A stretch of DNA of 64,000 bases from Candidatus Thorarchaeota archaeon. Its GTDB lineage: Archaea; Asgardarchaeota; Thorarchaeia; Thorarchaeales; Thorarchaeaceae. The stretch is taken from positions 224,001 through 288,000 of the forward strand of contig JBHLQH010000001.1 of NCBI GenBank assembly GCA_048884965.1, given 5' to 3'. Below, in pieces: positions 3,193 to 18,207 of this stretch. The position numbers were made by a program, and so were the translations under genes. Each line of letters starts with the position of its first letter. The first letter of the stretch is position 1. The notes beneath the pieces were generated by a model. That model did no database searches. It saw nothing but the letters and a program-made list of their open reading frames with translations, and was not told the origin of the DNA.

Positions 3193-3849
3193 TTACAGCC
3201 TCAGTAGACGGAAGTCACACTTACCATTACCTTCTGCTATGATTTCTGTTCGTTCGAATCTAATCCACTTGGAGATGGCTTCCATCATCAAGTAATCGTA
3301 TTCGCATAGGATAGGTCCCAATTCTGGATGCTCATTTGCCTTGAAGATATCAAAGTAGAAGCACTTCGTGATGTCGAACCCTAGCTCATTATCATTATCT
3401 GCAACATATTCTAGATCGAAGTATTGATTCTCATAGTTGTTTTGATTTCCTGTCTTTATATACTCAACAATGGTCTTCCAAGTATCTTCACTGGATTCCG
3501 CGTGAGCCCTGAAGCTGTCAATCGTTTGCTGTATCATATCCTGATAGATTGCAAGAACATGCTGTTTGAATTCCTCAAATGAAACTTTTTCCTGTTGAAG
3601 TACCTCATATAATGCAAGTACAAATGTAGGATTTACTCCATGACGTTTTGAAACAAAATCTGGCATCAAGTCTGCATTCTTCGAGAATACTCTATAGAAA
3701 GCATCTTCGAATCGATTTGCACAATTGCCAGCTTTCCAAACACCATAGGTTTTGGTCAGGTGAGAATAGGTTAAAGTTTTGAGATATCCTACCATTTGTT
3801 CTATGAACTCAGCTTCTGACATGATTTTCTGGGCTAGTTTTTTCATCAT
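3193..3849 (-). CDS. L-2-amino-thiazoline-4-carboxylate hydrolase-family (ATC hydrolase-like) protein
   Basis: Three-Cys C-terminal pattern: KCFY...LCEYD...RTEIIAEGNGKCDF. Confidence 0.7.
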   Translation of the reverse strand: MMKKLAQKIMSEAEFIEQMVGYLKTLTYSHLTKTYGVWKAGNCANRFEDAFYRVFSKNADLMPDFVSKRHGVNPTFVLALYEVLQQEKVSFEEFKQHVLAIYQDMIQQTIDSFRAHAESSEDTWKTIVEYIKTGNQNNYENQYFDLEYVADNDNELGFDITKCFYFDIFKANEHPELGPILCEYDYLMMEAISKWIRFERTEIIAEGNGKCDFRLLRL

Positions 3850-3910
3850 ATTAACTCATCTTGTAGTAACGTATTGTGACTCCTTTCTGTGACCCTTTTT
3901 TGTGGCTTCG

Positions 3911-3920
3911 GTATATATAC
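3911..3920. promoter_or_regulatory. Palindromic TATA element GTATATATAC
   Basis: About 30 nt upstream of the ATG at 3952, in a divergent intergenic region. Confidence 0.55.
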
Positions 3921-3951
3921 TAAATCTGGTACCATATACTTGTGAAATATC

Positions 3952-4053
3952 ATGGCTCTAGCAACTAACTACCGAACTGATTTCGTAAAGAAGAACAAAC
4001 AGGTCGTTTCGACCAAGGCTGTAGGTTATGCCTATGCAACTGTTGTGAGGTAA
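3952..4053 (+). CDS. Small peptide 1 (33 aa) MALATNYRTDFVKKNKQVVSTKAVGYAYATVVR
   Basis: ATG..TAA just downstream of the TATA element; similar to peptide 2; below the ORF-track size cutoff. Confidence 0.65.
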   Translation: MALATNYRTDFVKKNKQVVSTKAVGYAYATVVR

Positions 4054-4059
4054 TTGGAA

Positions 4060-4149
4060 ATGGCTCTTTCCAAGAACACCTATTCACGAAGCACTACTCG
4101 TCCCAAGATTGTCACTGACGCAATCGCTCATGCTTATCTTAGGAGGTAG
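4060..4149 (+). CDS. Small peptide 2 (29 aa) MALSKNTYSRSTTRPKIVTDAIAHAYLRR
   Basis: GAGGT RBS 8 nt before the ATG. Shares the MAL start and TxA[VI][GA][YH]AY motif with peptide 1. Confidence 0.65.
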   Translation: MALSKNTYSRSTTRPKIVTDAIAHAYLRR

Positions 4150-4154
4150 ACCCA

Positions 4155-5480
4155 CTGACCCTCATTACGGCGGAAGAAGCTGAGGTTAGCAAACCTGGCT
4201 TCTCAACTATTCTTCACCGTCCTGACTATCTTCGCCTTTGGCTGGGACAGGTCGTATCAAATGTCGGCACCGCAATAAGCTCACTTGCTCTTCTGTTCTT
4301 TGCCTATTATCTGACTGGTTCTGCCCTTGCAATGGCTATCCTGTCAATCGCACGTGTCGTTCCTGTAGTCCTTTTCTCCGGATTCATTGGCGTCTATGTT
4401 GACCGATGGGATCGAAAGAAGATAATGATAGGTTCTGATCTTCTCCGGACACTCCTCATTCTCCTTATTCCTCTCTCTATCTATTTCCCCCAGAATCTAC
4501 CAACTATCTATTGGGTCTACATTCTAACATTCCTCTACGCCTCTGCTGATGCGTGGTTCTATCCTGCCAGAAATGCCTCGATACCCAATCTTGTTGAAGG
4601 AAAAGAGCTTGTCACCGCGAACTCGTTGTCACAAATGACTTTCCAAGTTGTTCAATTGACGATCCCTCCCTTGGGTGGTGTACTAATTGCACTTCTTGCC
4701 CCCGATTACTTTCTGGCATTTGCGATAAACTCCATTGCCTTTGTCTTGTCAGCAATTTCACTATCTGGTATCAAGACAAATCTAAGACCCCAAAATAGCA
4801 CATCTGAGAAGGAAGCAATGCTCTCCCAGATCTCTGCAGGTGCAAAGGTTGTGATTCAGAATGCAGTTCTCAGTTTCATCTTTGTATTTGCTATTCTGCT
4901 CGCAGTTTCTTCGGGTATTCTCAATGCTCTACTAGTACCTCATTTACAAGGCTATCTTGGGCTTTCTGAAGGGGAGATTGGTCTTCTTATGAGTCTAGGC
5001 GCAGCTTCTGGAATAGTGATAGCTCTTTATCTTGGAAAGAAATCCGACCTGAAGCATCCTCTTGCCATGGTGAACATTGCTGGGATAATTGCTGGTATTG
5101 CTGTTCTTGGTTTCTCTCTTGCTGAAGGATTCGTAGCTGTTGCCCTTTCGTGGACCATCATTGCATCTGTTGATGTGATCCTTAACATCCCCCTAAGTGT
5201 CATAATGCAAAAGCTTGTAGCAGACAAGATGCGTGGAAGAGTATTCTCATTGTTATCAGTGGCTTTCACATCCTTCCAAGTAATCGGAATGGGCATTGGA
5301 GGCATCTGGGCTGAAACGATTGGATCAACCATTCTCCCACTCTTCATATCTGGACTTGCTTTCTTCTTGGTGTCGATAATAGCTGCTCTCTATCTCAAGC
5401 AGTCCCACCTTGGTAGTCGTCTATCAATTATGCTGAGTTCCTCGACCGAAGATCAGTTGGTAGTTGCTAGAACCGATTAG
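4155..5480 (+). CDS. MFS exporter (DHA3/MefA-like)
   Basis: The frame is open upstream of 4332 to a CTG at 4155 preceded by AGGAGGT. This adds TM1 (YLRLWLGQVVSNVG). Motif A GVYVDRWDRKK and RGRV are present. Confidence 0.9.
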   Translation: MTLITAEEAEVSKPGFSTILHRPDYLRLWLGQVVSNVGTAISSLALLFFAYYLTGSALAMAILSIARVVPVVLFSGFIGVYVDRWDRKKIMIGSDLLRTLLILLIPLSIYFPQNLPTIYWVYILTFLYASADAWFYPARNASIPNLVEGKELVTANSLSQMTFQVVQLTIPPLGGVLIALLAPDYFLAFAINSIAFVLSAISLSGIKTNLRPQNSTSEKEAMLSQISAGAKVVIQNAVLSFIFVFAILLAVSSGILNALLVPHLQGYLGLSEGEIGLLMSLGAASGIVIALYLGKKSDLKHPLAMVNIAGIIAGIAVLGFSLAEGFVAVALSWTIIASVDVILNIPLSVIMQKLVADKMRGRVFSLLSVAFTSFQVIGMGIGGIWAETIGSTILPLFISGLAFFLVSIIAALYLKQSHLGSRLSIMLSSSTEDQLVVARTD

Positions 5481-5561: not shown

Positions 5562-6197
5562 TTACTTTCTCAGAATCTCTTTCGATTCTTCGAAATATTC
5601 AAGATCCCCTTTTGAAATCAAAACTACAATGTAGAGGAAATGCTTCAGGAAGATATCGAAATCGCTAGAATCAAGAAGATCGGTTAAGAGAATCCTCTTC
5701 TTTCTGGGTATCTTCTTCAAGTATTTTTGAAGGTCATCGAGAAAGACCGAGTCTTCTGATGAGAATTTGAAGTCATCTGGAACCCCTGTAATCTCAGGTA
5801 TTTGCTCCTTAGGTAATGGCCTAGATAGTGCATCAAGATGCTGTATTACTCTGTCGAGTGATCTATTCAATGCATCTGGAGATATACGAGTCATTTTTAG
5901 TGGCTGTTTATAGACAATCAGACTGCTAAGGTCTCTAGGTTTGAGTTCCTTCAATCTACTTACATAAAGCTCGGGTGCTGCAAGAATCCTCGCTAGCTCC
6001 TGTACGCGAATTATCTTTGAGCCCAACATCTCATTGAGCATCTCATCAATATCAAGTCGCGAATCTACATCAGCTGTGAGCTTTCTTAGGTCTTGATACG
6101 CCTCAGCAAGACCCACATCAAGAGGATCGAGTTTTCCCTTCTCAACAGAGTCTACTAATTTCTGTACCTTTGATAGTAGCTTCTCTGTCGTTGTCAA
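5562..6197 (-). CDS. Kleisin/ScpA-like protein
   Basis: Directly after the SMC gene. N-terminal LDPLDVGL and C-terminal FLKHFLYIVVLISKGDL resemble ScpA motifs. Likely TTG start after GAGGTGA. Confidence 0.6.
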   Translation of the reverse strand: MTTTEKLLSKVQKLVDSVEKGKLDPLDVGLAEAYQDLRKLTADVDSRLDIDEMLNEMLGSKIIRVQELARILAAPELYVSRLKELKPRDLSSLIVYKQPLKMTRISPDALNRSLDRVIQHLDALSRPLPKEQIPEITGVPDDFKFSSEDSVFLDDLQKYLKKIPRKKRILLTDLLDSSDFDIFLKHFLYIVVLISKGDLEYFEESKEILRK

Positions 6198-6207
6198 CTT
6201 CTCACCT

Positions 6208-9200
6208 CTATTGCTCCTCAAATTGAGGGCTTTCTATTACAACGGATGGCTCTGTTCCACCTGGTGATACTACACCAATTCGCTTGTCAGCATGTCTCAT
6301 CAGATGCGTGCTCTTTGCTGGAGTGAGTAGGATGAATTGACTCCTGCGTGATGAATCATGAAGAAGTCGACTCACCATTTCAGTATTAGTAGCATCAAGA
6401 AAGGTATCAATCTCATCCATCGCATAGACTGGAGCTGGATTAGATCTCTGCAATGCTAGTATCAGACCAATCGCAATAAGAGACCTCTCACCACCAGAAC
6501 CGGCACTCAATGCTCCGAATTCTTCTCCCTTGATTCTAGTCTTGAATTCAACACCATACTCCTGACTGGATGTGCTAAGCTGAAATTTCACTTCTCCTGC
6601 GAATCTTACGGTTCCAAGAATTAGGTTCACTTCTGTTTCTACCTTGTTCAGAACGTCATTCATTCCATCATGATACTGCTTCTTGATGTCCTTGACTGTT
6701 TCCTCAGCCTCTTTCAATTCCTCTTGGATATCCCCGACCTTAGTTTTCAATTCTAAAAGCCTGTCCTTGAGCTGATTCTCTGTGTGTGCGATTGTTTCAG
6801 AGATATCTCGATATTCATCTAATTGATGCCTGACACGGAGTAATTCATCCCTGACGGTATCAATCTCTCTAACGTTCTTCGGTCTTTTGCTCCCTTTGAG
6901 ATCTTCCTCGATGTTGGTTTTTTGATGTTGATATGTATCATGCTGTCGTTTCGATTGAAGAACTTGATACCTGCTGTTCTTCACCTGTAGATTCAACTCG
7001 AGTATCCTACCGCTTATTTCGCGAATGTTCCCTCGTATTTCCGTCTGTTGAGCAATAAGGTCATTGTACTTGACTGAGGTCTGATCCAAGCTCTCTCTTA
7101 GATTCTCGATGCTCTCCACAATCACAGAACCTTCGGATTTGGTAGAGCTTATCTCTTCACGAAGTTCATCAGCTCTTTCTGAGAGCATTCTTGTACTCTC
7201 CTCAAGTCCGCGAAGTTCCTGTCTCTTCGTTGCCTCATCTCTCTCAGTTACTTGGAGCTTTCCCTCAATTTCTGATAGCTGACTTCTAAGCTTTCGATAT
7301 CTCATTCTAATTGCAGACTGCTCTCCAACCAATCTACTGCGTTCAGGTGGTTGAGTCGAGTCCAATTTCTTAAGGACCCTTTCAGCCTCTCCAATCTTAC
7401 TTTGTAAGTCTTTGATATCATCATCCAAGGCTACTATCCGTTCTTCCTGTTGAGGAATCATATCACGAAGTTTCTTTCTCCGCTCCCATGTTCCACTCCA
7501 TCTAGTGATTTGACTGATTAGATCCATTATCTCTTCTCGCTCTTGAGTAACCTTCTCAATTCCACTCATGACTTCTGTCACTCGATTCTGTGCGAATTTG
7601 AGTTCTGTTTCTGCATCTCCTAGCCTTGCCTGAAGGGGTGCTGTTGCGATCACACCAGTGGGTTCTTGTCTTGGATAACTCACAATTCTCGTTTCTGAGG
7701 GTTCCATTCTTTGTCCCTCTAGGGAAACTGATAGCAAACCTTCTTTCTCTGACACTCTTGTGGAATCTTGGAACTTCGATACAACAACATAATCACCAAA
7801 TGCTTGTCTCAACTTGACAACAGATTCATCGTCTAGCTTGAGAAGTTCCCAAAGCCATCCCTCAACGCCCTTCCTCTTTGGTAGTTCAGGCTTTTCTGCA
7901 AGGGATTTACTTGATCGAAGAAGAATGATGGGTGAGCTGGCTTCAATTTCATTTCGAAGTCGTGTAAGTAGAGTGTACTCGGCTTCGTCCTCAACTAGGA
8001 ACGAGAACGCCATTTGACTTGGAATGACTGCTTCAAGTGCGGACGCGTATTCATCACTACCTGTAAGGAATTCAATTATTGGTCCTGTAACGGTTTCCAA
8101 CTTGTGTTCATGAACAGCCTCTTTCAGCTTTAGGACATTATCAGGTATCCTCTTCGAGCTCTCTGTTAATCTAACCTTGATCTCGTCTATCTCCTTCTGA
8201 AGTTGAGCCACTTGGCTTACGAATCTGAATCTTGACTCATTTAGATTAGAGAGTTCTCGTTCAGCCTGTGCTTTCTTCTTTACTAGTTCCTTTTCGTCGG
8301 TTCCTTCAAGAACAGTCCAAACATGCCCCCATTTATTCTCGATCGCTTGTAATTCAGCTTCATCCACCTGAAGCTTCTCTTGGAGGCTCCTGAAAAGAAG
8401 GTCCTTTCCTTTCAGATCGACCTGAAGCGCCCTGAAAGTTCCCAATGCATCTGACCTTCTGGTATTCCAATCTGCAAATGCTGCCAGCTCGTTTTCTATT
8501 CTAGTTCGTTCCTCTTCAATTTCATCTAGACTTAGAGTGGTCTGTTTCTGATCTTCTAACATGTGCTCCTTCGCTGAGCTTACTCTTCGGAGGTCCTCCT
8601 TTGTCTTGTCCATCTTACGTTTATCTACAGTGATTCTTTTCTCCAGCTCTCTAATCTCATCAAGAGTAGACTTAGTTTCCGATTCTATCTTGGATAATCT
8701 CCTCTCCTCCTCTTCAATTCGGGCGGTGATACTTCCCATCTCCCGCTGAAGTAGAGAGGTCTCCTTCTCAATTACTGTAGCCTTTTGCTCTTCCTTTGTG
8801 ATGGTTTCCTCGAATTTGGAGGTTTCCTCTAGGATCTCTCCAAGACCAAGTTCTTTCTCTTCTATTTCCTGCTTGATATCATCAATCCTTTTCGTTAAAT
8901 CATCTAGAGTAGCCCATTTGACTTCTTTATCCAATTCTTTCTCTTGAGTGAGAAGCTCTCTCTTGCGTTGAAGTCGATCAACATCATGCTGGAGCAGCTC
9001 AATTTCTCGTTCTACAATCTTCGCCTCGCTAGTGGCTGCTTCCAATCTCTCACGACTAAACTGAACTTTCACTTCTTCCATCAGAATTCGGTCACGAAGA
9101 ACACTAAGTCCCGTTCCCTCTTCCACTAATTTCCTCACCTCTATTGGATCCATATCTCTGAGAGCATTGATTCTCTCCTGAGGCATGAAAACTAGCGGAT

Positions 9201-9579
9201 TATCCATATCAAAACCCAGACTATCGACAAGTGTTTGAAGCTCTGCAGCCTTTACCCTTTTGCCATCAACATACGCCCTTGGTATTCCGTCTCTGGTGAT
9301 CTTTCTAGTGAAGGTTCGAAACTGACCATTAACCCGTACCTTGACTTCGACCTCTGCTGAATTGGCACCATGGCGAATAAAATCACTCCATTTGGAGTAT
9401 CTATTCTCTCTCTGATTAGAGCCTAGAGCGAATTTGATTGCATGAAAGATGGATGTCTTTCCTGATCCATTTGGTCCGACGATCACAGTGAGACCTGAAT
9501 CAAACTGAACCAACCCCTCATAGAATGAGAGGAAATTCTTCAATTTGACCGATTCAATGTTTGCGTCGAACTTTCTCAA
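6208..9579 (-). CDS. smc: SMC-family ATPase, Smc5/6-like
   Basis: Walker A GPNGSGKTS, Q-loop FMPQE, long coiled coils with central hinge, signature SGGERS, Walker B MDEID, D-loop LD. Confidence 0.92.
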   Translation of the reverse strand: MRKFDANIESVKLKNFLSFYEGLVQFDSGLTVIVGPNGSGKTSIFHAIKFALGSNQRENRYSKWSDFIRHGANSAEVEVKVRVNGQFRTFTRKITRDGIPRAYVDGKRVKAAELQTLVDSLGFDMDNPLVFMPQERINALRDMDPIEVRKLVEEGTGLSVLRDRILMEEVKVQFSRERLEAATSEAKIVEREIELLQHDVDRLQRKRELLTQEKELDKEVKWATLDDLTKRIDDIKQEIEEKELGLGEILEETSKFEETITKEEQKATVIEKETSLLQREMGSITARIEEEERRLSKIESETKSTLDEIRELEKRITVDKRKMDKTKEDLRRVSSAKEHMLEDQKQTTLSLDEIEEERTRIENELAAFADWNTRRSDALGTFRALQVDLKGKDLLFRSLQEKLQVDEAELQAIENKWGHVWTVLEGTDEKELVKKKAQAERELSNLNESRFRFVSQVAQLQKEIDEIKVRLTESSKRIPDNVLKLKEAVHEHKLETVTGPIIEFLTGSDEYASALEAVIPSQMAFSFLVEDEAEYTLLTRLRNEIEASSPIILLRSSKSLAEKPELPKRKGVEGWLWELLKLDDESVVKLRQAFGDYVVVSKFQDSTRVSEKEGLLSVSLEGQRMEPSETRIVSYPRQEPTGVIATAPLQARLGDAETELKFAQNRVTEVMSGIEKVTQEREEIMDLISQITRWSGTWERRKKLRDMIPQQEERIVALDDDIKDLQSKIGEAERVLKKLDSTQPPERSRLVGEQSAIRMRYRKLRSQLSEIEGKLQVTERDEATKRQELRGLEESTRMLSERADELREEISSTKSEGSVIVESIENLRESLDQTSVKYNDLIAQQTEIRGNIREISGRILELNLQVKNSRYQVLQSKRQHDTYQHQKTNIEEDLKGSKRPKNVREIDTVRDELLRVRHQLDEYRDISETIAHTENQLKDRLLELKTKVGDIQEELKEAEETVKDIKKQYHDGMNDVLNKVETEVNLILGTVRFAGEVKFQLSTSSQEYGVEFKTRIKGEEFGALSAGSGGERSLIAIGLILALQRSNPAPVYAMDEIDTFLDATNTEMVSRLLHDSSRRSQFILLTPAKSTHLMRHADKRIGVVSPGGTEPSVVIESPQFEEQ

Positions 9580-9583
9580 TGGT

Positions 9584-10654
9584 TTACCTTCCCATTATTC
9601 TGCTTAATCTATCACTGGTGCGCTTTGCTCGCATCAATCTGGTAAGTCTATCTTCTGCGTTCCCTGTTAGGAGGAATGGGTACCTGCTCAAGAACTCTGC
9701 ATCTGCTGGAGCTAATGGTAGGCTCGCATTCAAGGACTCGATGACACGTTGTGTTCCTTGGAAATCATCACCAACGGCCATTAGATACAGTTGGTCCAAG
9801 AAGTCATCAGGATAAGAGTGCTCGATTGACTCATAGGTAGGAACATGACTCCCCTGAGTTGTACGTGAAATTCTCTGACGTGTTTCACTTCGTGATATTC
9901 CAATTATTCCGCTCGAATCCAAAATCTGTTCGAGCTTGCCTCTGGGTATCGGGTTTGATTCCTCGGGCACATCTGTGTGAAGAGTTACTGAGAGATGCAC
10001 TAAATCAGAAAATCCCCAGCCTTCTGTGATTTCCGCCAGAGTTGTTGGATCCAAGTCTTTTCTTCCCTCTAAAAGCGATTCAAGCACTTTTACCCTCTCC
10101 TCCATTTGTATGGTTTCAAAGATAAAAACACGGTCAAAAGTCGTAAGTATCTCATCTTCTATCCGTTCGGGGAAGACAGTTGCCGCAACTACCGCGATCT
10201 CATGTTGATCCCATGTTGTTTCTCTAAGAGCACTAAGAAAGACAGAAGCATATTCCTTGCCTTTCTCTGCCAGGGCATCTAGCTTGTCGATATAGATGAC
10301 AGCTGGCGAATTTCGCTTGGCGAATTCAACTAATGTTCTTATGGCATCAGATACTTGGTGAGCTTCTCCGAATGCATGAGTCAGTCTTAAGCGAATGATC
10401 TTCAGTGGCGTTTCATATGCAATATGGTGAACAAAGGATTCAAAGTCGGTTCCTGCCGCTCCAAGGAGGAGTACTCTTCCACCAAAGATCAATCCCTTGC
10501 CATGCAGCTTCTCTCGGAAGCTACCATATTTGGCAAGCACACTCTGGAACTTCTTTGCCTTATCTAGAACCGAAGGCTGACTAAATCGGTCAGCGTCCAA
10601 ATCTTCTGGTTCTTCTAGGATTACAACCTCGGTAATGGCGTCTGGTCTACTCAC
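9584..10654 (-). CDS. Degenerate (pseudo) AAA+ ATPase of classical CDC48/FtsH-like type
   Basis: VLLLGAAGTDFES (Walker A lacks Lys), IYIDKLD (Walker B E>K), AAT..P..ID, FDR and TEGWGFSDL. Confidence 0.7.
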   Translation of the reverse strand: MSRPDAITEVVILEEPEDLDADRFSQPSVLDKAKKFQSVLAKYGSFREKLHGKGLIFGGRVLLLGAAGTDFESFVHHIAYETPLKIIRLRLTHAFGEAHQVSDAIRTLVEFAKRNSPAVIYIDKLDALAEKGKEYASVFLSALRETTWDQHEIAVVAATVFPERIEDEILTTFDRVFIFETIQMEERVKVLESLLEGRKDLDPTTLAEITEGWGFSDLVHLSVTLHTDVPEESNPIPRGKLEQILDSSGIIGISRSETRQRISRTTQGSHVPTYESIEHSYPDDFLDQLYLMAVGDDFQGTQRVIESLNASLPLAPADAEFLSRYPFLLTGNAEDRLTRLMRAKRTSDRLSRIMGR

Positions 10655-10812
10655 TGTGCACCCCTCGGCGTCATGCTAGTTTTGAAAATGAAGCCATATT
10701 ATCCCTTCGAAGCCTGCGTTTTTTTCGCGCCTTTCCATTTTTCGATTCGCGCCCTGACCGTATCAACCATAAGCCCTCAAGCTCCCGATATTTGTGCTCG
10801 AGATGAGGGAAA

Positions 10813-12528
10813 ATGACAAAGACAACTGAAAGCCTCAGGGAAAGCATATGGCAGGTGATCACTACAGTTGAGAGTAGAGGTCTCTTCGTCCACTCTGAGG
10901 AACTTCCCATCAAGTATAAGGCACAGGCGCGCTCAAGCTCCAAGATTAGCTCAGTACGACTACCACTTATTGCAGGAGCATGCGTTTTGAATTCACTGGT
11001 CCCTCGCTCAGCAATGCTCCTCGTAGGTGGACATGGCGGCGGAAAGACCACCCTTATCAAACTCTTGGGACGCATGTTAACTGGTAGGAGCCTCGATGAG
11101 ATTGATGAGGGTATGCTCAGAGGACATCCCCAGCTAACGGAGGAGAAGATGGTTGCAACTCTACGACCCGGTCCGCTCATGAAGGATGGAGTCGAAGTCG
11201 TTGTATGGCGTCAGTTCGTAACTAACTTCTGGAAGATTATCGATGAAGCCAATCGTTTGACACCACATGCTCAGAATATTCTTCTTTCCATGCTAGCTGA
11301 AGGTGAATTGAAGTATTACGATGAAGTCATGCACTGCGATGATTACTGTCTTTATGCAACGATGAATCCCACTGATAGTGGCACCTTTGACCTTGCACCG
11401 CCTTTCCTTGACCGTTTTGGTATGGCTGTCCCTATAACTATGCCAACCATCGATGATCTCGAACTCATACTTTCCTCGCGTGATGATCGCCTTTTTGGCT
11501 ATGATGAGATGTGGCAAGTACCGGCGATTACTACCGAGGAGGATTTGCTGACAATATGGAACCTTGCAGACAAGGTACCAGTATCACAGGAGGCATCAGA
11601 GTTCATGAGATCTCTTGTGCGTGAATTTGGGGCGTGTATCCGGGTTGATAAGAGTCAGACTCACTCCCTGACTGTTGAAACTGGTCTCTGCGATAGTTGT
11701 CACTATAACACAGCCAAGAGTGTGTGCAATAAGGTCATCATTCCTCTCAGCGTTCGCGCGGTCAAAGACCTCAATCGCTATAGTAAGGCTGCTGCATGGC
11801 TTATCGGAGCTCCTGAAGTAGGCATAGAACTAGTCAAATCCTTGGCACCACTAATATTCTGGCACCGTACTCGTTTTGTGACTGAAGGTATTGAGAAATC
11901 TCCCTTCTTTGGAAACTCCTTTGAATATACGAAGCATCTAGTAGAGCTTGCCTCTTCAAGATTCGCACAGCGCGAGCCTGCCATTCGACTAATGGACAAA
12001 CTGAAACAGGGTGAAGGTGATAAGACAATACTTGAGGAGCTATCAGAAATGGGCAAGAGCGACCTTCTTGTTCGACTCGATTATATCAAGTTCGCAAAGG
12101 AATTGCAGAAATCGACCTATGCGGCGATGGTGAAGAACATAGAGAAAGCAGTGAAGTCCTCAAGTGTGAAGGACCTAACAGAGCTACAGCAGCAGATATT
12201 GGAAACGACAGATTTTCCAAATCGTAGTATGCTCCTAAGCCGAATATCTGAAGCCCTACACAAGCTAACACTCTCCCAATTCTCACTCACGTTTGAGCAA
12301 TGGCAGGATCTCTGGACAACGATAAGCTTGAAGATTCCCAAGATGACAAGCATTCTCAAAGAGACCCTCAAGCCACCTAAGCGAAAGGTCGTTCGGACTG
12401 ATGGCGTTACGCTTGTTGTCTATGTAACCGGAAGTACGCCCGAATCACCTGTCTTCCTTGAAATCTCAGGCGGCACACAAGCATTGGATCTACGAAAGGA
12501 AATAGAGAAACACATTTCATCCGAGTGA
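10813..12528 (+). CDS. MoxR-like AAA+ ATPase
   Basis: GGHGGGKT, IIDEANRL.P..QN.LL, ATMNP, PFLDRF, SVRA. Confidence 0.85.
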   Translation: MTKTTESLRESIWQVITTVESRGLFVHSEELPIKYKAQARSSSKISSVRLPLIAGACVLNSLVPRSAMLLVGGHGGGKTTLIKLLGRMLTGRSLDEIDEGMLRGHPQLTEEKMVATLRPGPLMKDGVEVVVWRQFVTNFWKIIDEANRLTPHAQNILLSMLAEGELKYYDEVMHCDDYCLYATMNPTDSGTFDLAPPFLDRFGMAVPITMPTIDDLELILSSRDDRLFGYDEMWQVPAITTEEDLLTIWNLADKVPVSQEASEFMRSLVREFGACIRVDKSQTHSLTVETGLCDSCHYNTAKSVCNKVIIPLSVRAVKDLNRYSKAAAWLIGAPEVGIELVKSLAPLIFWHRTRFVTEGIEKSPFFGNSFEYTKHLVELASSRFAQREPAIRLMDKLKQGEGDKTILEELSEMGKSDLLVRLDYIKFAKELQKSTYAAMVKNIEKAVKSSSVKDLTELQQQILETTDFPNRSMLLSRISEALHKLTLSQFSLTFEQWQDLWTTISLKIPKMTSILKETLKPPKRKVVRTDGVTLVVYVTGSTPESPVFLEISGGTQALDLRKEIEKHISSE

Positions 12529-12538
12529 AGGTGGTCCT

Positions 12539-14230
12539 ATGGAACGAGCTGAAGGTCTTGAAACTGCCGCACTCAAAGCATGGTTCCAAGCGATCTCAGA
12601 TTTCTACAACCCTCCCTTGCCAGATCCCGTCATAGAACACGATGAGGACGCATCCTCATTCTTTTACATCGATTCTAAGAGTTGGACTGTTCATTTGAAC
12701 ACCGCTGGTGTTCCCTTGAATCTTTCAGTCAACGAATCGGAATCATACCTTCGATCTGTCTGCCACCATGAGATCCAGCATTATCTGCTATGCCCATACG
12801 ATGGCGTGACGAATGGCATGTTGTTCGCAGGTGCAAGAAAGCATCTCTCAGATAACCTTGCGATGTTCGTTTGCAATATATTTGCAGACCTTGTTGTAGA
12901 CTCCAATCTTCTCAAAAGATACCAGATAGTGACTCACTCAAGAATTACGACATCCATTCACGACTCCTCGCTAAGGACACGAGATCACAGCCCACTTTGG
13001 AAGCTAGTCATTGCGATCTATCGCTGGATGTGGGGTTTTCCTATCCCCACAGGTGTTGATATTGATCAAGCGACCATCCAAACGGCGAACCTAATCACAG
13101 AGACTGCCAAGGAGTATCTTGAGAACGAGTCTCGATGGCCAAAGGCTACTGAGATGATTGCGAAGATTGTGTCAGAATGGCTTCCAGAACAAGAAGAGGA
13201 ATTTGGTGGGACCGGATTGCAAGAGGGACCTGAAGATGGGTCGATTCTGGTTCCTGCTGACCTTGATGGAGTAATGGGTAGTCCGACTGAGGATCGGAAT
13301 GGGGATCGCGCCAGAAAATGCATTTCACCTGAAGAAGTTTCAAATATCGATGAAGAGATGGAGCGATTAGCAGTTGAAGTGGAAGAGCGTGGGGGTAGCC
13401 TGAAAGACCTTGAAGCTGTCTATATCATAGCTGGTGCTGGCACGGGCAATAAGGATTGGATTCGTTTCTGGTACCGAGCGAAAGTTAGAGGGGTGCTCAG
13501 ATTTCAGGTTCGTCAAATGAGACCTCAAGGGGCAGTCCCTCTCAACCCGAGTCCTTGGCGACTTGGTGACCCTATTGAAGAATTGGATGTTGTGCAATCT
13601 CTACAGACATTTCCTGTATTGGTACCAAACATGTCGACACGCAGGTGGCTCAGAACGGTTTACTATGGTGAGGACCCTCGGAGCGAATTACCCGATCTTC
13701 TTGTGGTACTCGATTCCAGTGGCTCAATGACCTGGTCAATGGGCAAGAGTGACCTTAGGGGTGCCTATCATGTCGCATTGGTTTCTGCTTTAGCTGCAGT
13801 TGATACGGCACTTCGAAAGGGCAGTAGTATTTCTGCGATTAACTTCTCAGGAAATATCCTGAAGTGTGGGTGGACTCGTGACCGTTCCGAAATCGAACGG
13901 ACACTGCTCGCATATCAAGGTGGTGGAACCGTTATGCCAATCAATACCATCCAGGAGCTGTGTGATGAGTCCCTCTCTTCGGTGATGAGCGTCATTATCA
14001 CAGACGTAGGAATATCTAATTGGGGTCCATTTGTAAAAACAATTGAGAAACTCTCGAAGCAAGGACATAAGATGTTCATCTTCCATATCGGTGGTAAGAA
14101 AGAGAAGGTCTCGAAATCTGTCAATCAACTCATGCAGGCAGGAGCTTTTGTTATACCCGTTTCGAGTGTAAGAGACTTACCTGGACTCGTTGTGTCGGAA
14201 GTTCATCGAACATACATGCCCAGTACCTAA
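12539..14230 (+). CDS. vWA-domain protein with N-terminal HExxH metallopeptidase-like domain
   Basis: HHEIQH with downstream NIFAD; MIDAS LDSSGSM, GGGT, IITD. Confidence 0.85.
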   Translation: MERAEGLETAALKAWFQAISDFYNPPLPDPVIEHDEDASSFFYIDSKSWTVHLNTAGVPLNLSVNESESYLRSVCHHEIQHYLLCPYDGVTNGMLFAGARKHLSDNLAMFVCNIFADLVVDSNLLKRYQIVTHSRITTSIHDSSLRTRDHSPLWKLVIAIYRWMWGFPIPTGVDIDQATIQTANLITETAKEYLENESRWPKATEMIAKIVSEWLPEQEEEFGGTGLQEGPEDGSILVPADLDGVMGSPTEDRNGDRARKCISPEEVSNIDEEMERLAVEVEERGGSLKDLEAVYIIAGAGTGNKDWIRFWYRAKVRGVLRFQVRQMRPQGAVPLNPSPWRLGDPIEELDVVQSLQTFPVLVPNMSTRRWLRTVYYGEDPRSELPDLLVVLDSSGSMTWSMGKSDLRGAYHVALVSALAAVDTALRKGSSISAINFSGNILKCGWTRDRSEIERTLLAYQGGGTVMPINTIQELCDESLSSVMSVIITDVGISNWGPFVKTIEKLSKQGHKMFIFHIGGKKEKVSKSVNQLMQAGAFVIPVSSVRDLPGLVVSEVHRTYMPST

Positions 14231-14311: not shown

Positions 14312-15172
14312 ATGTACGAAATCATGGTCAAGAAAGTATTGGCCGATGTCGCTGGGACTCGTACAACTATGATGGTTGTCAAGGCTCCAGATGTGGCACG
14401 TGTTTGCCAACCCGGTCAGTTTGTTATCATTCGTGTCAATGAAACAGGTGAACGTATTCCTCTCACTGTAGCTGATTTCAATCGTGAAAAGGGCGAAGTC
14501 ACAATTGTCTTTCAAGAAGTTGGCAAGAGCACGAAGTTGCTTGGAACACTTGACAAAGGTGAGTTCATAGAGGACTTTGTTGGACCTCTTGGAAAGGCGA
14601 CACCTACTGACAAGAACTATGGAACCGTGGTTGCTATTGGTGGAGGTTGTGGAAGCGCAATCGCATACCCTGTAGCCAGAGCTTTCAAAGAAGCAGGCAA
14701 CTACTTGATTACAATTAATGGGGCTCGAAGCATGGACCTTCTCATCTATAGAAATGAGATGGCTACAATAAGCGATGAGTCATACGAAACAACCGATGAT
14801 GGATCATGCGGAGTACATGGATTCGTCACAAATGTACTGGGCGACCTCATTGAAAAAGGACGAAAGATTGACCTTGTATTTGCTGTTGGTCCTGTCCCAA
14901 TGATGAAGTTCGTAGCAAAGACCACTGAAGCAAAAGGTATCCATACGATTGTGAGTCTGAACAGCATAATGGTCGATGGGACAGGGATGTGTGGAGCATG
15001 CAGAGTATCTGTTGGCGGCCAGATGAAATTCTCGTGTGTGGATGGACCTGAGTTTGATGGACACCAAGTGGACTTCAATGAACTCATGGGACGTTTGGAT
15101 GCCTATAAAGAAAAGGAACAGGTCTCCTTGAAGGAATGGGAGACAACAACAGGAGGGCGCCTAAATGTCTGA
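14312..15172 (+). CDS. nfnA: NfnA/SudB: FAD/NAD-binding [2Fe-2S] subunit
   Basis: PGQFVII, GERIPLT, GPLG, MVDGTGMCGACR, CVDGPEFD. Confidence 0.9.
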   Translation: MYEIMVKKVLADVAGTRTTMMVVKAPDVARVCQPGQFVIIRVNETGERIPLTVADFNREKGEVTIVFQEVGKSTKLLGTLDKGEFIEDFVGPLGKATPTDKNYGTVVAIGGGCGSAIAYPVARAFKEAGNYLITINGARSMDLLIYRNEMATISDESYETTDDGSCGVHGFVTNVLGDLIEKGRKIDLVFAVGPVPMMKFVAKTTEAKGIHTIVSLNSIMVDGTGMCGACRVSVGGQMKFSCVDGPEFDGHQVDFNELMGRLDAYKEKEQVSLKEWETTTGGRLNV

Positions 15173-16583
15173 TTCAGAACCAAAGAAGGAGAGAAAGCCT
15201 CCGACAAAGAAGCTACCAATGCCTGAACAGGATCCCAATGTGAGGCGAAAGAACTTCAATGAAGTAGCATTAGGTTATTCTGCGGAACAGGCTGTAGAGG
15301 AAGCGAAGAAATGCATGCAGTGCAGAAATCCCAAATGTATCAGTGGGTGTCCTGTCGAGGTACCAATCAAGGAATTTGTAGCTCTTCTACAAGAAGGCAA
15401 ATTCATGGATGCGGCAATGAAGATCAAGGAAACGAATAGCTTACCTGCAGTATGCGGCCGTGTTTGTCCTCAAGAAACTCAATGTGAAGCTTCATGCATT
15501 TATGGCATACGAAATGAACCAATCGCCATAGGCCGGTTGGAGCGTTTTGTTGCAGATTATGCTCGAGAACATGGTGAATCCCTGCCTGATCTACCTCCGA
15601 AAATTGGCAAGAAAGTCGCAGTGATTGGCTGTGGACCTGCTGGCCTTACCTGTGCAGGGGACCTTATCCTATTGGGTTATGATGTAACAATCTTTGAGGC
15701 ATTTCACAAAGGTGGTGGAGTTCTACAATATGGAATTCCAGAATTCAGATTGCCAAAAGAAATCGTTGATGCTGAAATTGATTATCTCGAGAGACTGGGT
15801 GTTGAAGTCAAGTACAACTTCGTCGTTGGAAAAACCAGAACAATTCAGGAGCTAATGGAACTCGATGGTTATGAAGCCGCTTTCATTGGATCTGGTGCTG
15901 GTGCTCCGAATTTCATGAACATCGGTGGAATGAACCTAGTAGATGTATTCTCTGCAAATGAATTCCTGACTCGTGTAAATCTCATGAAAGGATATCTATT
16001 TCCAAAGTATGATACTCCAGTAAAGATTGGACGGCGTGTAGCGGTCATCGGAGGCGGCAACGTGGCGATGGATGCAGCTCGCACATCACTGCGACTGGGA
16101 GCAAAGGAAGTATACATTGTCTATCGTCGCTCTCGAGAAGAGATGCCTGCGAGAGCAGAGGAAGTTCACCATGCAGAGGAGGAAGGAGTACAGTTCAAGC
16201 TTCTCATCAATCCCACTGAAGTCCTCGGTGATGACAAGAATCGTGTGATAGGGATGCAATGTGTGAGAATGGAACTCGGAGAACCTGATGCTTCAGGTCG
16301 ACGAAGACCTGTCACTGTTCCGAACTCTGAGTTCGTTCTTGATGTTGACATGGTGATAGTCGCAATTGGGAACTCTCCAAATCCCATTATCCCTTCAACC
16401 ACTCCCGGTCTATCGGTTTCCAAATGGGGAACTATCGAGATAGATGAGGAATCTGGAATGACCACTGTACATGGTGTATTTGCTGGAGGCGATATTGTCA
16501 CTGGCGCTGCAACAGTCATCAGTGCAATGGGTGCTGGTAAGAGAGCCGCTCGAGGTATCCATCAGTATCTGTCTACTAAATAG
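15165..16583 (+). CDS. nfnB: NfnB/SudA (GltD-like) NADPH-binding Fe-S flavoprotein
   Basis: CMQC..P.C..GCP, CGRVCPQETQCE, GxGPAG, GGGNVAMD; overlaps nfnA. Confidence 0.9.
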   Translation: MSDSEPKKERKPPTKKLPMPEQDPNVRRKNFNEVALGYSAEQAVEEAKKCMQCRNPKCISGCPVEVPIKEFVALLQEGKFMDAAMKIKETNSLPAVCGRVCPQETQCEASCIYGIRNEPIAIGRLERFVADYAREHGESLPDLPPKIGKKVAVIGCGPAGLTCAGDLILLGYDVTIFEAFHKGGGVLQYGIPEFRLPKEIVDAEIDYLERLGVEVKYNFVVGKTRTIQELMELDGYEAAFIGSGAGAPNFMNIGGMNLVDVFSANEFLTRVNLMKGYLFPKYDTPVKIGRRVAVIGGGNVAMDAARTSLRLGAKEVYIVYRRSREEMPARAEEVHHAEEEGVQFKLLINPTEVLGDDKNRVIGMQCVRMELGEPDASGRRRPVTVPNSEFVLDVDMVIVAIGNSPNPIIPSTTPGLSVSKWGTIEIDEESGMTTVHGVFAGGDIVTGAATVISAMGAGKRAARGIHQYLSTK

Positions 16584-16593
16584 AAAATGCTTT

Positions 16594-16652
16594 AGCTAGT
16601 AGGTGCAGAACATCCTACTAGCTTGCTCTCTTCTTTTTCATCATTTCTTTTT
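16594..16652 (+). terminator. Stem-loop plus pyrimidine tract after nfnB
   Basis: Perfect 10-bp stem AGCTAGTAGG/CCTACTAGCT followed by T-rich runs. Confidence 0.65.
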
Positions 16653-16698
16653 GAAAGGTTCATTAGTCACGTATGTCTTTACAGGACTCGGTGATTCC

Positions 16699-18207
16699 GT
16701 GCAAGAAGCTCCACTATCAACTCAAGATATGCGTGTCTTAGAATTGAACGCAGAATATCTGGGAGTAAGTTTGGGTACCTTGATGGAGAACGCGGGTAGA
16801 GAGGTTTCAAGAACCATCATATCTCATCATGACATTCACAATAAGCGAATCGGGATAGTATGCGGTACCGGAGGTAATGGAGGAGATGGCTTTGTTGCAG
16901 CCCGACACCTACAGGAAGCTGGAGGGAGAATAGAGGTCTTTCTTGTTGGAGACGCTGAAAGGATATCCACCCCCCACACATTGAAGAATTGGACAATCTT
17001 GAATGATCTTCAAACCATACCTGTAACGATAATTGGAACTGAATCAGATGTGAAGAATGCAGGATTTACTTCATTTGACATCTTGATTGATGCTTTACTT
17101 GGATTCGGTCTGACATCCAATGTGCGTGAACCCATCGCGTCTGCAATAAAGGCTATCAACAAGGCAGGTGCACTCAAGTACTCCATTGATATTCCTAGTG
17201 GAATGGACAGTGACACGGGCAAGGTGCTAGGTACAGCTGTGAAAGCGGATCATACAATCACCATGCATGCCCCTAAACCTGGCCTTCTCCTCAATACTGA
17301 GTGTGTAGGCGCACTTCATGTTGTTGCTATCGGAATCCCAGATGAGGCCTATCACGTATGTGGCCAGGGCGACCTTTGGCTATTCAATAGACCTCGAAAA
17401 GTGGATTCACATAAGGGTGACTTTGGGAGAGTTCTAGTAATTGGTGGGAGCGATATTTATTCCGGTGCGCCTGCGCTTGCAGGTATGGCTGCTCTGAGGA
17501 CTGGGGCAGATCTTGTTTCTATCATCGCACCTGAATCTGTGGCACCAGCTATCCGTTGCTATAGTCCAAATCTAATGGTTCGTTCAACAGGGACAAAAGT
17601 ATTCGATGATAGTTGCATCGCCAGTGTCCTACAGGCAGCTGCTTTGAATGACGTGATTGCTATTGGTCCTGGTTTGGGCACCTCGGAGGATTCCAGAGTA
17701 TTCTTCAGAGAGGTCATTGAGCGCCTTGTTACCCTGAAAAAGCTCTTAGTAATTGATGCAGATGGACTGAGGGCTTTGTCTGAAACCGAACAAGTGTTTG
17801 ATCATGAACGGACGATACTAACACCTCATTGGGGTGAGATGCAAGTCCTCATCGGTAGGAAGCAAAGCAACACCATGGACCTTGATCACCGGCTTGCCGT
17901 TGCACGAGAAACTGCTAGTCGCTATGGTGCTACTATTCTGCTAAAAGGTCCCATTGATGTCATTACATCACCAGATGGAAGGCACAAATTCAATAGGACT
18001 GGCCATCCTGCAATGACTGTTGGCGGAACCGGAGATGTACTTACAGGGATCTCAGCTGCGTTATTAGCGAGGAATTTTGGAGCCTACTATGCAGCTTCTG
18101 CAGGTGCTTTTGTCTCAGGCATTGCTGGAGAACTTGCCGCAAAGGAACTGGGTGGACGTATTTTGGCCACTGACTGTATAAGTCAGATTCCCTATGCGAT
18201 GATGTAG
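16699..18207 (+). CDS. nnr: Bifunctional NAD(P)HX epimerase/dehydratase
   Basis: LMENAG, GGNGGDG, DIPSG, HKGDFG, GPGLG, DADG, TPH, GGTGDVL. GTG start after GGTGAT. Confidence 0.92.
   Translation: MQEAPLSTQDMRVLELNAEYLGVSLGTLMENAGREVSRTIISHHDIHNKRIGIVCGTGGNGGDGFVAARHLQEAGGRIEVFLVGDAERISTPHTLKNWTILNDLQTIPVTIIGTESDVKNAGFTSFDILIDALLGFGLTSNVREPIASAIKAINKAGALKYSIDIPSGMDSDTGKVLGTAVKADHTITMHAPKPGLLLNTECVGALHVVAIGIPDEAYHVCGQGDLWLFNRPRKVDSHKGDFGRVLVIGGSDIYSGAPALAGMAALRTGADLVSIIAPESVAPAIRCYSPNLMVRSTGTKVFDDSCIASVLQAAALNDVIAIGPGLGTSEDSRVFFREVIERLVTLKKLLVIDADGLRALSETEQVFDHERTILTPHWGEMQVLIGRKQSNTMDLDHRLAVARETASRYGATILLKGPIDVITSPDGRHKFNRTGHPAMTVGGTGDVLTGISAALLARNFGAYYAASAGAFVSGIAGELAAKELGGRILATDCISQIPYAMM

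Follow-up and report, generated by a model that had tools for sequence, protein, structure and literature searches.

In the window, that is, the 64,000-nucleotide stretch of contig JBHLQH010000001.1 of a Candidatus Thorarchaeota archaeon (positions 224,001 to 288,000) that was analysed here, the segment from 5562 to 14230 carries the genes of a second SMC complex facing a gene pair for a MoxR-type AAA+ ATPase and a protein with an HExxH motif and a von Willebrand factor A (vWA) domain. On balance, we favour the explanation that the minus-strand operon encodes a second Asgard SMC holocomplex, which includes a catalytically dead AAA protein (pseudo-AAA, hereafter pAAA) as a subunit and is facultatively coupled to a MoxR–vWA remodelling module. 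Among the genomes searched, the complex encoded by the minus-strand operon is specific to Asgard archaea. The MoxR–vWA pair is a widespread Asgard module, coupled genomically to the second SMC operon in Thorarchaeota, in Jordarchaeales and in related lineages. The genome surveyed as host is a Thorarchaeota metagenome-assembled genome of 4.09 Mb in 99 contigs, 95.7% complete. The features of the locus are the following:

5562..6197, minus strand: kleisin by its modelled fold, 211 aa from TTG 6197 (219 aa, 5562-6221, in the list of open reading frames)
6208..9579, minus strand: second SMC ATPase, 1123 aa, with SMC_N and SMC_hinge Pfam matches
9584..10654, minus strand: pAAA, 356 aa, with a PF00004 match and dead Walker A and Walker B motifs
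10655..10812, no strand: divergent intergenic spacer between pAAA and MoxR, 158 bp, presumed to hold both promoters
10813..12528, plus strand: MoxR-type AAA+ ATPase, 571 aa, with an AAA_5 match and intact Walker A and Walker B motifs
12539..14230, plus strand: HExxH and vWA protein, 563 aa, with the HExxH motif in the N-terminal part and a vWA domain with a metal ion-dependent adhesion site (MIDAS) in the C-terminal part

All five open reading frames (ORFs) are intact. The gap between the pAAA and SMC genes is 4 nt and that between the MoxR and vWA genes 10 nt, with the 158-bp spacer separating the two divergent units. A further 10 nt lie between the SMC stop and the kleisin start, provided that the latter is TTG 6197; we set the start there and not at 6221 because the orthologous kleisins begin M-T-T-S-K at that point, and an AGGTGA ribosome-binding site precedes this codon. 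By eye, and on a reading of the sequence alone, the spacer contains AT-rich TATA-like stretches on either strand. The G+C content of the locus is uniform with its surroundings. About 50 Thorarchaeota contigs were examined, and in every locus long enough to show them the five genes are intact and have the same layout, so that the arrangement is not due to chance. Thus, ORF analysis and sequence reading confirm what an earlier note on this DNA had described, namely a five-gene locus with gaps of 4, 10 and 10 nt around a 158-bp spacer.

The SMC protein of the window matches Pfam SMC_N with 140.5 bits over residues 8-1105 and SMC_hinge with 29 bits at residues 496-606. Its alignment to the NCBIfam model TIGR02169 runs end to end and scores 290.3 bits, against a curated cut-off of 729.4 for the canonical equivalog. 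The canonical SMC of the same genome, encoded on contig C35 and followed by ScpA and ScpB, reaches 872 bits on this model. Walker A, Q-loop, signature, Walker B and hinge are all present in the window protein, and residues G35, N37, G40, K41, Q134, S1028, G1030, D1055 and E1056 are invariant in the alignment of its family (A6). Since the catalytic motifs and the hinge are kept, and the score is 290 bits compared to 872 for the C35 protein, we conclude that the window SMC is a second, divergent paralogue beside canonical Smc-ScpAB, presumably active and ATP-competent to judge from its residues.

The relationships of this paralogue were assessed through a quick maximum-likelihood tree (IQ-TREE); family numbers, here and below, are those of a phyletic sample of 251 Asgard genomes, in which MoxR and pAAA orthologues were scored by family. 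The pAAA-linked SMCs of Thorarchaeota (f1), f2, Jordarchaeales (f7), f8 and the Loki-type family (f9) group together in a single clade (SH-aLRT 99), to which neither the canonical SMCs nor a third SMC of Jordarchaeales belong. The short SMC of f19 sits on a long branch outside this monophyletic group, and its placement is unsure. Profile scores against PDB entries (SMC2 227, SMC3 219, SMC5 175 and SMC6 155 bits) neither support nor exclude an SMC5/6 label. The 2.1-Mb genome G044 (Jordarchaeales) has three separate SMC-kleisin-kite operons (L135, L136 and L112), whose SMCs score 920 bits (canonical), 657 bits (second, with a ScpB-like kite) and 244 bits (MoxR-linked). In the f19 genome G065, the SMC of the pAAA-SMC-kleisin-kite operon at L143:8694-13701 is much shorter, with 835 aa, and the pAAA longer, with 459 aa.

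The small gene following the SMC gene has no Pfam or NCBIfam match, and a search of 16 orthologues against Pfam to E 10 returned no kleisin family (SMC_ScpA PF02616, Nse4_C, Rad21). Its assignment comes from an AlphaFold2 (AF2) model built on the orthologue alignment (predicted local distance difference test, pLDDT, 73), which predicts N-terminal helices followed by an acidic, disordered linker and, at the C-terminus, a winged helix. Specifically, modelled residues 159-219 have the kleisin-type C-terminal winged helix, and their first match among 48,161 chains is 4i99_C, the ScpA C-terminal winged-helix domain on the Smc head (Z 8.0, root-mean-square deviation 2.1 over 61 residues). The Scc1 C-domain is likewise among the structural matches, and 5h66_C, 1w1w_E and 6qpq_D appear in the Foldseek listing. 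The top two Foldseek matches are entries of SMC5/6 complexes, 7tve_G (E 8.6e-3) and 7qcd_F (E 1.1e-2), both weak with template-modelling (TM) scores of 0.23-0.25; we take these two chains to be Nse4. The N-terminal helices (11-101) match generic helical bundles only. Orthologues come after the SMC gene in the Thorarchaeota, Jordarchaeales, Loki-type and f8 loci. On the strength of the modelled fold, the gene at 5562-6197 is the kleisin of the second SMC complex.

The earlier note had stated that the locus lacks a ScpB or kite gene, which is true only within 5562-14230. A candidate kite gene maps to G000:C1:218238-218750 on the minus strand, at a distance of about 11 kb downstream from the kleisin, which places it 5.3 kb to the left of the window start. 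In most other Thorarchaeota genera the kite directly follows the kleisin, often with a 4-nt overlap, and it also follows the kleisin in the Jordarchaeales, f8, f19 and Loki-type loci; in the Loki-type loci L132-L134 and in f19 L143 this gene, the fourth of the unit, encodes 145-178 aa. The kite is therefore displaced in the genus of the window, where about 8-11 kb of unrelated genes, running from window positions 3193-5480 leftwards to about G000:C1:218750, separate it from the kleisin; the inserted genes include an MFS transporter (4332-5480) and an ATC-hydrolase-like gene (3193-3849). An alignment of 24 candidate kites (A7) shows two winged-helix-like halves. Compared with ScpB by hhalign, the candidates align in register with a weak score (probability 39%, E 3e-4). 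Their Pfam matches are weak as well, to winged-helix families and, in 4 of the 24 members, to DUF4194, which we take to be the Wadjet JetB kite family. Searching the genome with a MAGE (Nse3) profile gave nothing credible. All together, these data point with moderate confidence to the gene at 218238-218750 as the putative tandem winged-helix kite of the second SMC complex.

A further gene accompanies the kite in Thorarchaeota. At G000:C1:217795-218154, about 5.9 kb to the left of the window start (L138:1058-1417, minus strand), a protein of 119 aa is encoded which combines a TFIIB-type Zn-ribbon with a winged helix. It lies 60-70 nt after the kite in every Thorarchaeota genome examined, with 48-86% identity, and the pair is kept together even where it is inverted or displaced. 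A tblastn search did not find this protein in the Loki-type, Jordarchaeales or f8 loci, and it may be a Thorarchaeota-specific seventh component.

On the other side of the SMC gene, pAAA matches the AAA family (PF00004) with 43.5 bits. Its Walker A position reads GAAGTDFES, with no GK[ST], and its Walker B position reads DK (IDKLD), so that neither classical catalytic motif is present. The lysine-less GxPGTDF motif is kept in orthologues from Thorarchaeota to the Loki-type family; therefore, the loss of ATPase chemistry is old and has been maintained. The AF2 model (pLDDT 87) has the classical AAA fold, an alpha/beta domain plus lid, and matches FtsH, p97-D2, spastin and PAN at E of about 1e-11, and also Vps4. 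A disordered linker leads to a C-terminal domain of three helices (about 283-354), which over all lineages is better conserved than any other part of the protein. Indeed, most of the 8 invariant and 14 near-invariant columns of the pAAA alignment are C-terminal. No class could be assigned to this domain, the whole-model fold search being dominated by the AAA domain. A word-indexed homologue search with the C-terminal region returned Thorarchaeota-like proteins only, annotated as 'AAA family ATPase', 'ATP-binding protein' or 'FtsH 4', and is silent on the range outside Asgard archaea. Complex prediction for pAAA with the SMC head halves (1-205 and 905-1123) and the kleisin, run with alignments, gave 0.00 in both runs, which speaks neither for nor against binding.

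The loss of the catalytic motifs, together with the shortening of the Jordarchaeales and f8 proteins to 271-315 aa with a degenerate N-terminal half, could suggest that pAAA is a decaying remnant without a role and that only the genes for SMC, kleisin and kite matter. We consider this highly improbable. All the loci examined, from six Asgard families, have an intact pAAA ORF. Conservation extends to the dead motif itself and to the C-terminal domain, the fold is predicted with confidence, and even the shortened proteins retain the lid and the C-terminal domain. Moreover, pAAA is the gene directly upstream of the linked SMC in every locus examined, at a distance of 4 nt here and with overlapping ORFs in Jordarchaeales and f8. 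A subunit of the second SMC complex therefore stays our preferred reading of pAAA, and the earlier note is supported in so far as the SMC, a divergent second paralogue, has a kleisin of its own together with an AAA partner that is dead as an ATPase.

The plus-strand genes encode members of the broad class of pairs made up of a MoxR/CobS-type ATPase and a vWA adaptor. The first protein scores 47.7 bits on PF07728 (AAA_5; cut-off 22), and its GGHGGGKT and IIDE motifs are invariant, as befits a MoxR/AAA_5 ATPase. By profile, the solved structures that come closest to it are those of midasin AAA modules and of the 2r44 protein. No other gene of the block is as conserved as MoxR, whose identities are 62-83% within Thorarchaeota and 45-49% between these and the other Asgard lineages. 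Past the AAA core, C275, C293, C296, H297 and C305 form an invariant Cys/His cluster, whose residues suggest a zinc-binding insert, and the protein ends in a conserved extension of about 200 aa that matches no family.

In the second protein, the HExxH residues H77, E78 and H81, the residue D88 and the MIDAS residues D392, S394, S396, T464 and D489 are invariant in 19 sequences from at least four lineages (A5). The window protein has the complete DxSxS..T..D pattern of a vWA domain with MIDAS; VWA_2 matches 17 of the 19 members and VWA 12 of the 19, the window protein itself scoring 17 bits, below the cut-off of 27. A PDB profile search gave a weak vWA match (4cn8) and none for the HExxH domain, and this domain had no Pfam match, the DUF2201_N model included. 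For residues 1-235, the ESM Atlas model is similar to bacterial and phage proteins in which an N-domain is joined to a VWA domain (TM 0.74-0.78). Look-alikes of the HExxH N-domain itself, obtained with the same model, are of CobT type (TM 0.64), DUF2201_N (TM 0.51) and SprT-like (TM 0.39-0.41), and in one cluster of look-alikes 13% of the members carry a Peptidase_M48 label.

The organization of this pair varies in the Loki-type family and its clade. In G043 (L137:5802-10624), the MoxR gene is parted from that of its vWA partner by the insertion of two genes, one PrpD-like and one for a WD40/beta-propeller protein of 1024 aa, and in the Loki-type loci L107, L110, L115 and L128 the two genes are separated by 4-9 kb. 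Three Loki-type MoxR orthologues contain in-frame TAA stops (G125:C2:81570-83312, three; G214:C7:20029-21741, one; G253:C132:24572-25144, one), and may be pseudogenes, assembly errors or cases of recoding.

We then come to the linkage between the MoxR–vWA pair and the SMC genes. MoxR and pAAA are adjacent in Thorarchaeota (found in 50/59 and 48/59 genomes, respectively), in f2 and f8 (both genes in 1/1 genome) and in Jordarchaeales, where the same three of five genomes carry both modules; eight Thorarchaeota genomes are without both. The unit of pAAA, SMC, kleisin and kite was found in Thorarchaeota, f2, Jordarchaeales (L112), f8 (L144), the Loki-type family (L132-L134) and f19 (L143), and in the Loki-type and f19 loci the genes stand in this order. 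The linkage itself takes three architectures. The divergent block of MoxR–vWA and the trio of pAAA, SMC and kleisin is present in every Thorarchaeota locus reaching that far, and persists despite rearranged flanks (L035, L036 and L046). In Jordarchaeales L112, in f8 L144 and in L102, the order is MoxR, vWA, pAAA, SMC, kleisin and kite, all co-directional and with ORFs overlapping or nearly abutting. Finally, MoxR–vWA is convergent to, and abuts, canonical SMC-ScpB in the Loki-clade genome G043 and in the f24 genomes G222 and G110, whose close relatives are without this arrangement. The gene linkage between MoxR–vWA and SMC thus comprises three architectures and at least two independent juxtapositions.

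Several observations weigh against an obligate tie of the two modules. MoxR occurs in 43/54 and pAAA in 49/54 genomes of the Loki-type family, and the modules lie on different contigs or far apart in all 41 genomes that have both and in which the positions of the two could be compared. Eight genomes of this family have pAAA only (four of them 99-100% complete), two have MoxR only and three have neither. Families f17 (5/5), f20 (5/7) and f24 (5/5) have MoxR–vWA without any pAAA, and f19 has the pAAA operon in 6/6 genomes and MoxR in 0/6. The complete Loki-type chromosome CP070805 has MoxR–vWA and a single SMC. In Thorarchaeota, synteny and joint loss alone could reflect plain inheritance or block deletion, and at least one apparent loss there (G015) ends at a contig edge. 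For the favoured explanation as a whole, gene content, motifs, folds, orthology and gene order were observed, and the physical interactions and the direction of action are all inferred. The HExxH domain is a putative zincin, with a third zinc ligand and protease activity equally putative.

These points bring in the alternative that the trio and the kite form a genuine second SMC complex to which MoxR–vWA, as a housekeeping chaperone module, is unrelated, their adjacency being a historical accident kept by synteny. MoxR–vWA is single copy in 6/6 genomes checked (that of the window and five others) and highly conserved, it stands alone beside a HAD-hydrolase gene or other housekeeping genes in Loki-type genomes, and some families and genomes have it while lacking pAAA or a second SMC, just as the pAAA operon occurs without it in f19 and in the eight Loki-type genomes. 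The region next to the vWA gene is also informative in this respect: window positions 14312-18207 encode a DHODB-type Fe-S subunit, a GltD-like oxidoreductase and a bifunctional NAD(P)H-hydrate repair enzyme (Nnr), and this flank is likewise syntenic in most Thorarchaeota genomes, so that local synteny by itself is weak evidence in this group. An accident of history is harder to reconcile with the fused six-gene operon of Jordarchaeales, f8 and L102, whose overlapping ORFs represent an architecture other than that of Thorarchaeota, with the separate juxtapositions to canonical SMC-ScpB in two distant lineages whose relatives are without them, and with the survival of the Thorarchaeota block through flank rearrangements. 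We therefore regard an unrelated module as a possible but less probable account.

Since the modules are unlinked in Loki-type genomes and each is found without the other, we regard the coupling of MoxR–vWA to the second SMC as likely, but as facultative and not obligate. A neighbourhood and co-occurrence survey of the kind that the earlier note had called for, here over Asgard genomes, gave adjacency in four families, separation in the Loki-type family and the lack of one module in four others. The tie between MoxR–vWA and SMC that the note had drawn accordingly stands as a linkage recurring in several independent gene orders, and is not supported as an obligate one. The note's further idea, that MoxR–vWA may assemble, unload or cleave the ring, keeps the rank of a proposal.

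The same note had entertained a defence machine, and SMC-family ATPases with accessory proteins do serve in defence. According to this reading, the locus would protect against plasmids or viruses in the manner of Wadjet or Lamassu, the HExxH-vWA protein being its effector. PADLOC indeed matches the SMC head with mad3 (113 bits) and LmuB (97 bits), and the architecture with a zincin-like N-domain and VWA occurs in phages too. These SMC-head matches are generic. The protein itself has its full length, hinge included, and no PADLOC model reaches the 290 bits that it obtains on the SMC model. PADLOC returned no match for MoxR, vWA, kleisin or kite, and for pAAA a weak generic AAA match only. The block contains no nuclease or other known effector, such as the JetD Toprim nuclease of Wadjet or an LmuA-type effector of Lamassu, and no mobile-element genes are present among the flanking ORFs scanned. 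Inheritance looks vertical, with a stable neighbourhood across about 20 genera and a G+C content like that of the surroundings, and this genome has one MoxR and one pAAA orthologue. On the PADLOC results and the vertical inheritance we rejected the defence reading, which we hold to be very unlikely.

The second SMC complex has a published counterpart, on which the literature search also turned up Yoshinaga & Inagaki 2021 (PMC8665677). Two SMC-kleisin-kite operons are frequent in TACK and Asgard archaea, and three occur in some of the latter, the second type having been called SMC5/6-related (van Hooff et al., bioRxiv 10.1101/2024.01.07.573240). Supplementary Table 3 of that work lists for a Thorarchaeia genome two SMCs, one ScpB-like and one Nse1/3-related kite, an 'SMC-kite neighbours = 0' entry and no Nse4-related kleisin, and the table puts both SMCs of a Thorarchaeota genome in the SMC5/6-related clade (10.1101/2024.01.07.573240). 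The system described here agrees with those operons in having a second SMC, its own kleisin and a putative non-ScpB kite beside canonical Smc-ScpAB, and the tabulated non-adjacency of SMC and kite fits the displaced kite. It differs in the Thorarchaeota kleisin, which was found here and was evidently missed in their table, and in the profile scores, which favour SMC2 and SMC3, the SMC5/6 label resting on their tree. The text and supplements make no mention of the AAA gene, of MoxR or of vWA/von Willebrand proteins (10.1101/2024.01.07.573240), and a full-text literature search for MoxR with kleisin, SMC, vWA and archaea returned nothing relevant. The earlier note had called the machine undescribed: this no longer applies to the SMC-kleisin-kite core, whose duplication is already published, and still applies to the dead AAA gene and the MoxR/vWA link, on which we found no paper.

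By comparison with canonical Smc-ScpA-ScpB, the complex shares a full-length SMC with a hinge, a kleisin whose modelled C-terminal winged helix is ScpA-like (4i99_C), a putative tandem winged-helix kite and the SMC-kleisin-kite order. The window SMC differs in its score (290 against the cut-off of 729), the kleisin and kite are without a significant Pfam ScpA or ScpB match, and the dead AAA gene and the MoxR–vWA neighbours are extras; genuine Smc-ScpAB is encoded elsewhere in the genome. MoxR AAA+/vWA pairs include RavA-ViaA, CbbQ-CbbO, NorQ-NorD, CobS-CobT and the DUF2201_N plus DUF2201 proteins, and in the pairs that have been studied the vWA adaptor recruits the protein complex that the ATPase is to remodel. 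The window pair has the same two-gene order, an AAA_5 ATPase and then a vWA/MIDAS adaptor, and a zincin-like N-domain is present in bacterial and phage look-alikes. It is set apart by the conserved Cys/His cluster and the 200-aa C-terminal extension of MoxR. As far as we found, no described pair is linked to SMC genes, so that the new element here is the genomic partner of the pair. Eukaryotic Smc5/6 has non-kleisin, non-kite accessory factors, Nse5/6 and Nse2, which regulate loading or ATPase activity, and Cdc48/p97 acts on SMC complexes. To Cdc48/p97 the likeness is that of a classical-clade AAA fold associated with an SMC ring, by analogy only and with pAAA, unlike Cdc48, catalytically dead. 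No sequence or fold relationship was found between Nse5/6 or Nse2 and the proteins of the locus, and here too the likeness is one of analogy.

Under the favoured explanation, the ATP-competent SMC, presumably as a homodimer, would form a DNA-holding ring with the short kleisin and the putative tandem winged-helix kite. Such a ring would, given its homology with Smc-ScpAB and Smc5/6, be expected to entrap or extrude DNA. pAAA would be a stoichiometric, non-catalytic adaptor or regulatory subunit bound through its C-terminal domain. The vWA MIDAS may dock on a subunit of the SMC complex, with pAAA or the acidic linker of the kleisin as candidates. Once docked in this way, the module would act on the complex through its MoxR ring, by remodelling, loading or releasing it, and the HExxH domain might cleave one of the subunits. 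A bolder version of this scheme, which we put forward as a doubtful proposal, is an ATP-driven Asgard machine composed of a MoxR hexamer, a zincin/vWA adaptor and a dead-AAA receptor that opens, unloads or proteolytically dismantles SMC rings. If true, the substrates of such a machine would be the second SMC complex and also, for certain lineages, canonical Smc-ScpAB, and the machine would be a prokaryotic functional forerunner of kleisin cleavage by separase, of Wapl release and of Cdc48/p97 extraction.

The loading, regulation and removal of SMC rings are well studied in eukaryotes and bacteria and almost blank in archaea, and Asgard archaea are the closest known relatives of eukaryotes. The dead AAA subunit and the MoxR/vWA/HExxH module are concrete candidate archaeal SMC regulators, and all the parts are small soluble proteins, open to co-expression. 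In case the link between the two modules is not real, the pAAA-SMC-kleisin-kite unit would still extend the published second archaeal SMC complex, in which the Thorarchaeota kleisin and the AAA gene had been missed. In case it is real, the finding would bear on the origin of the eukaryotic repertoire of SMC accessory factors.

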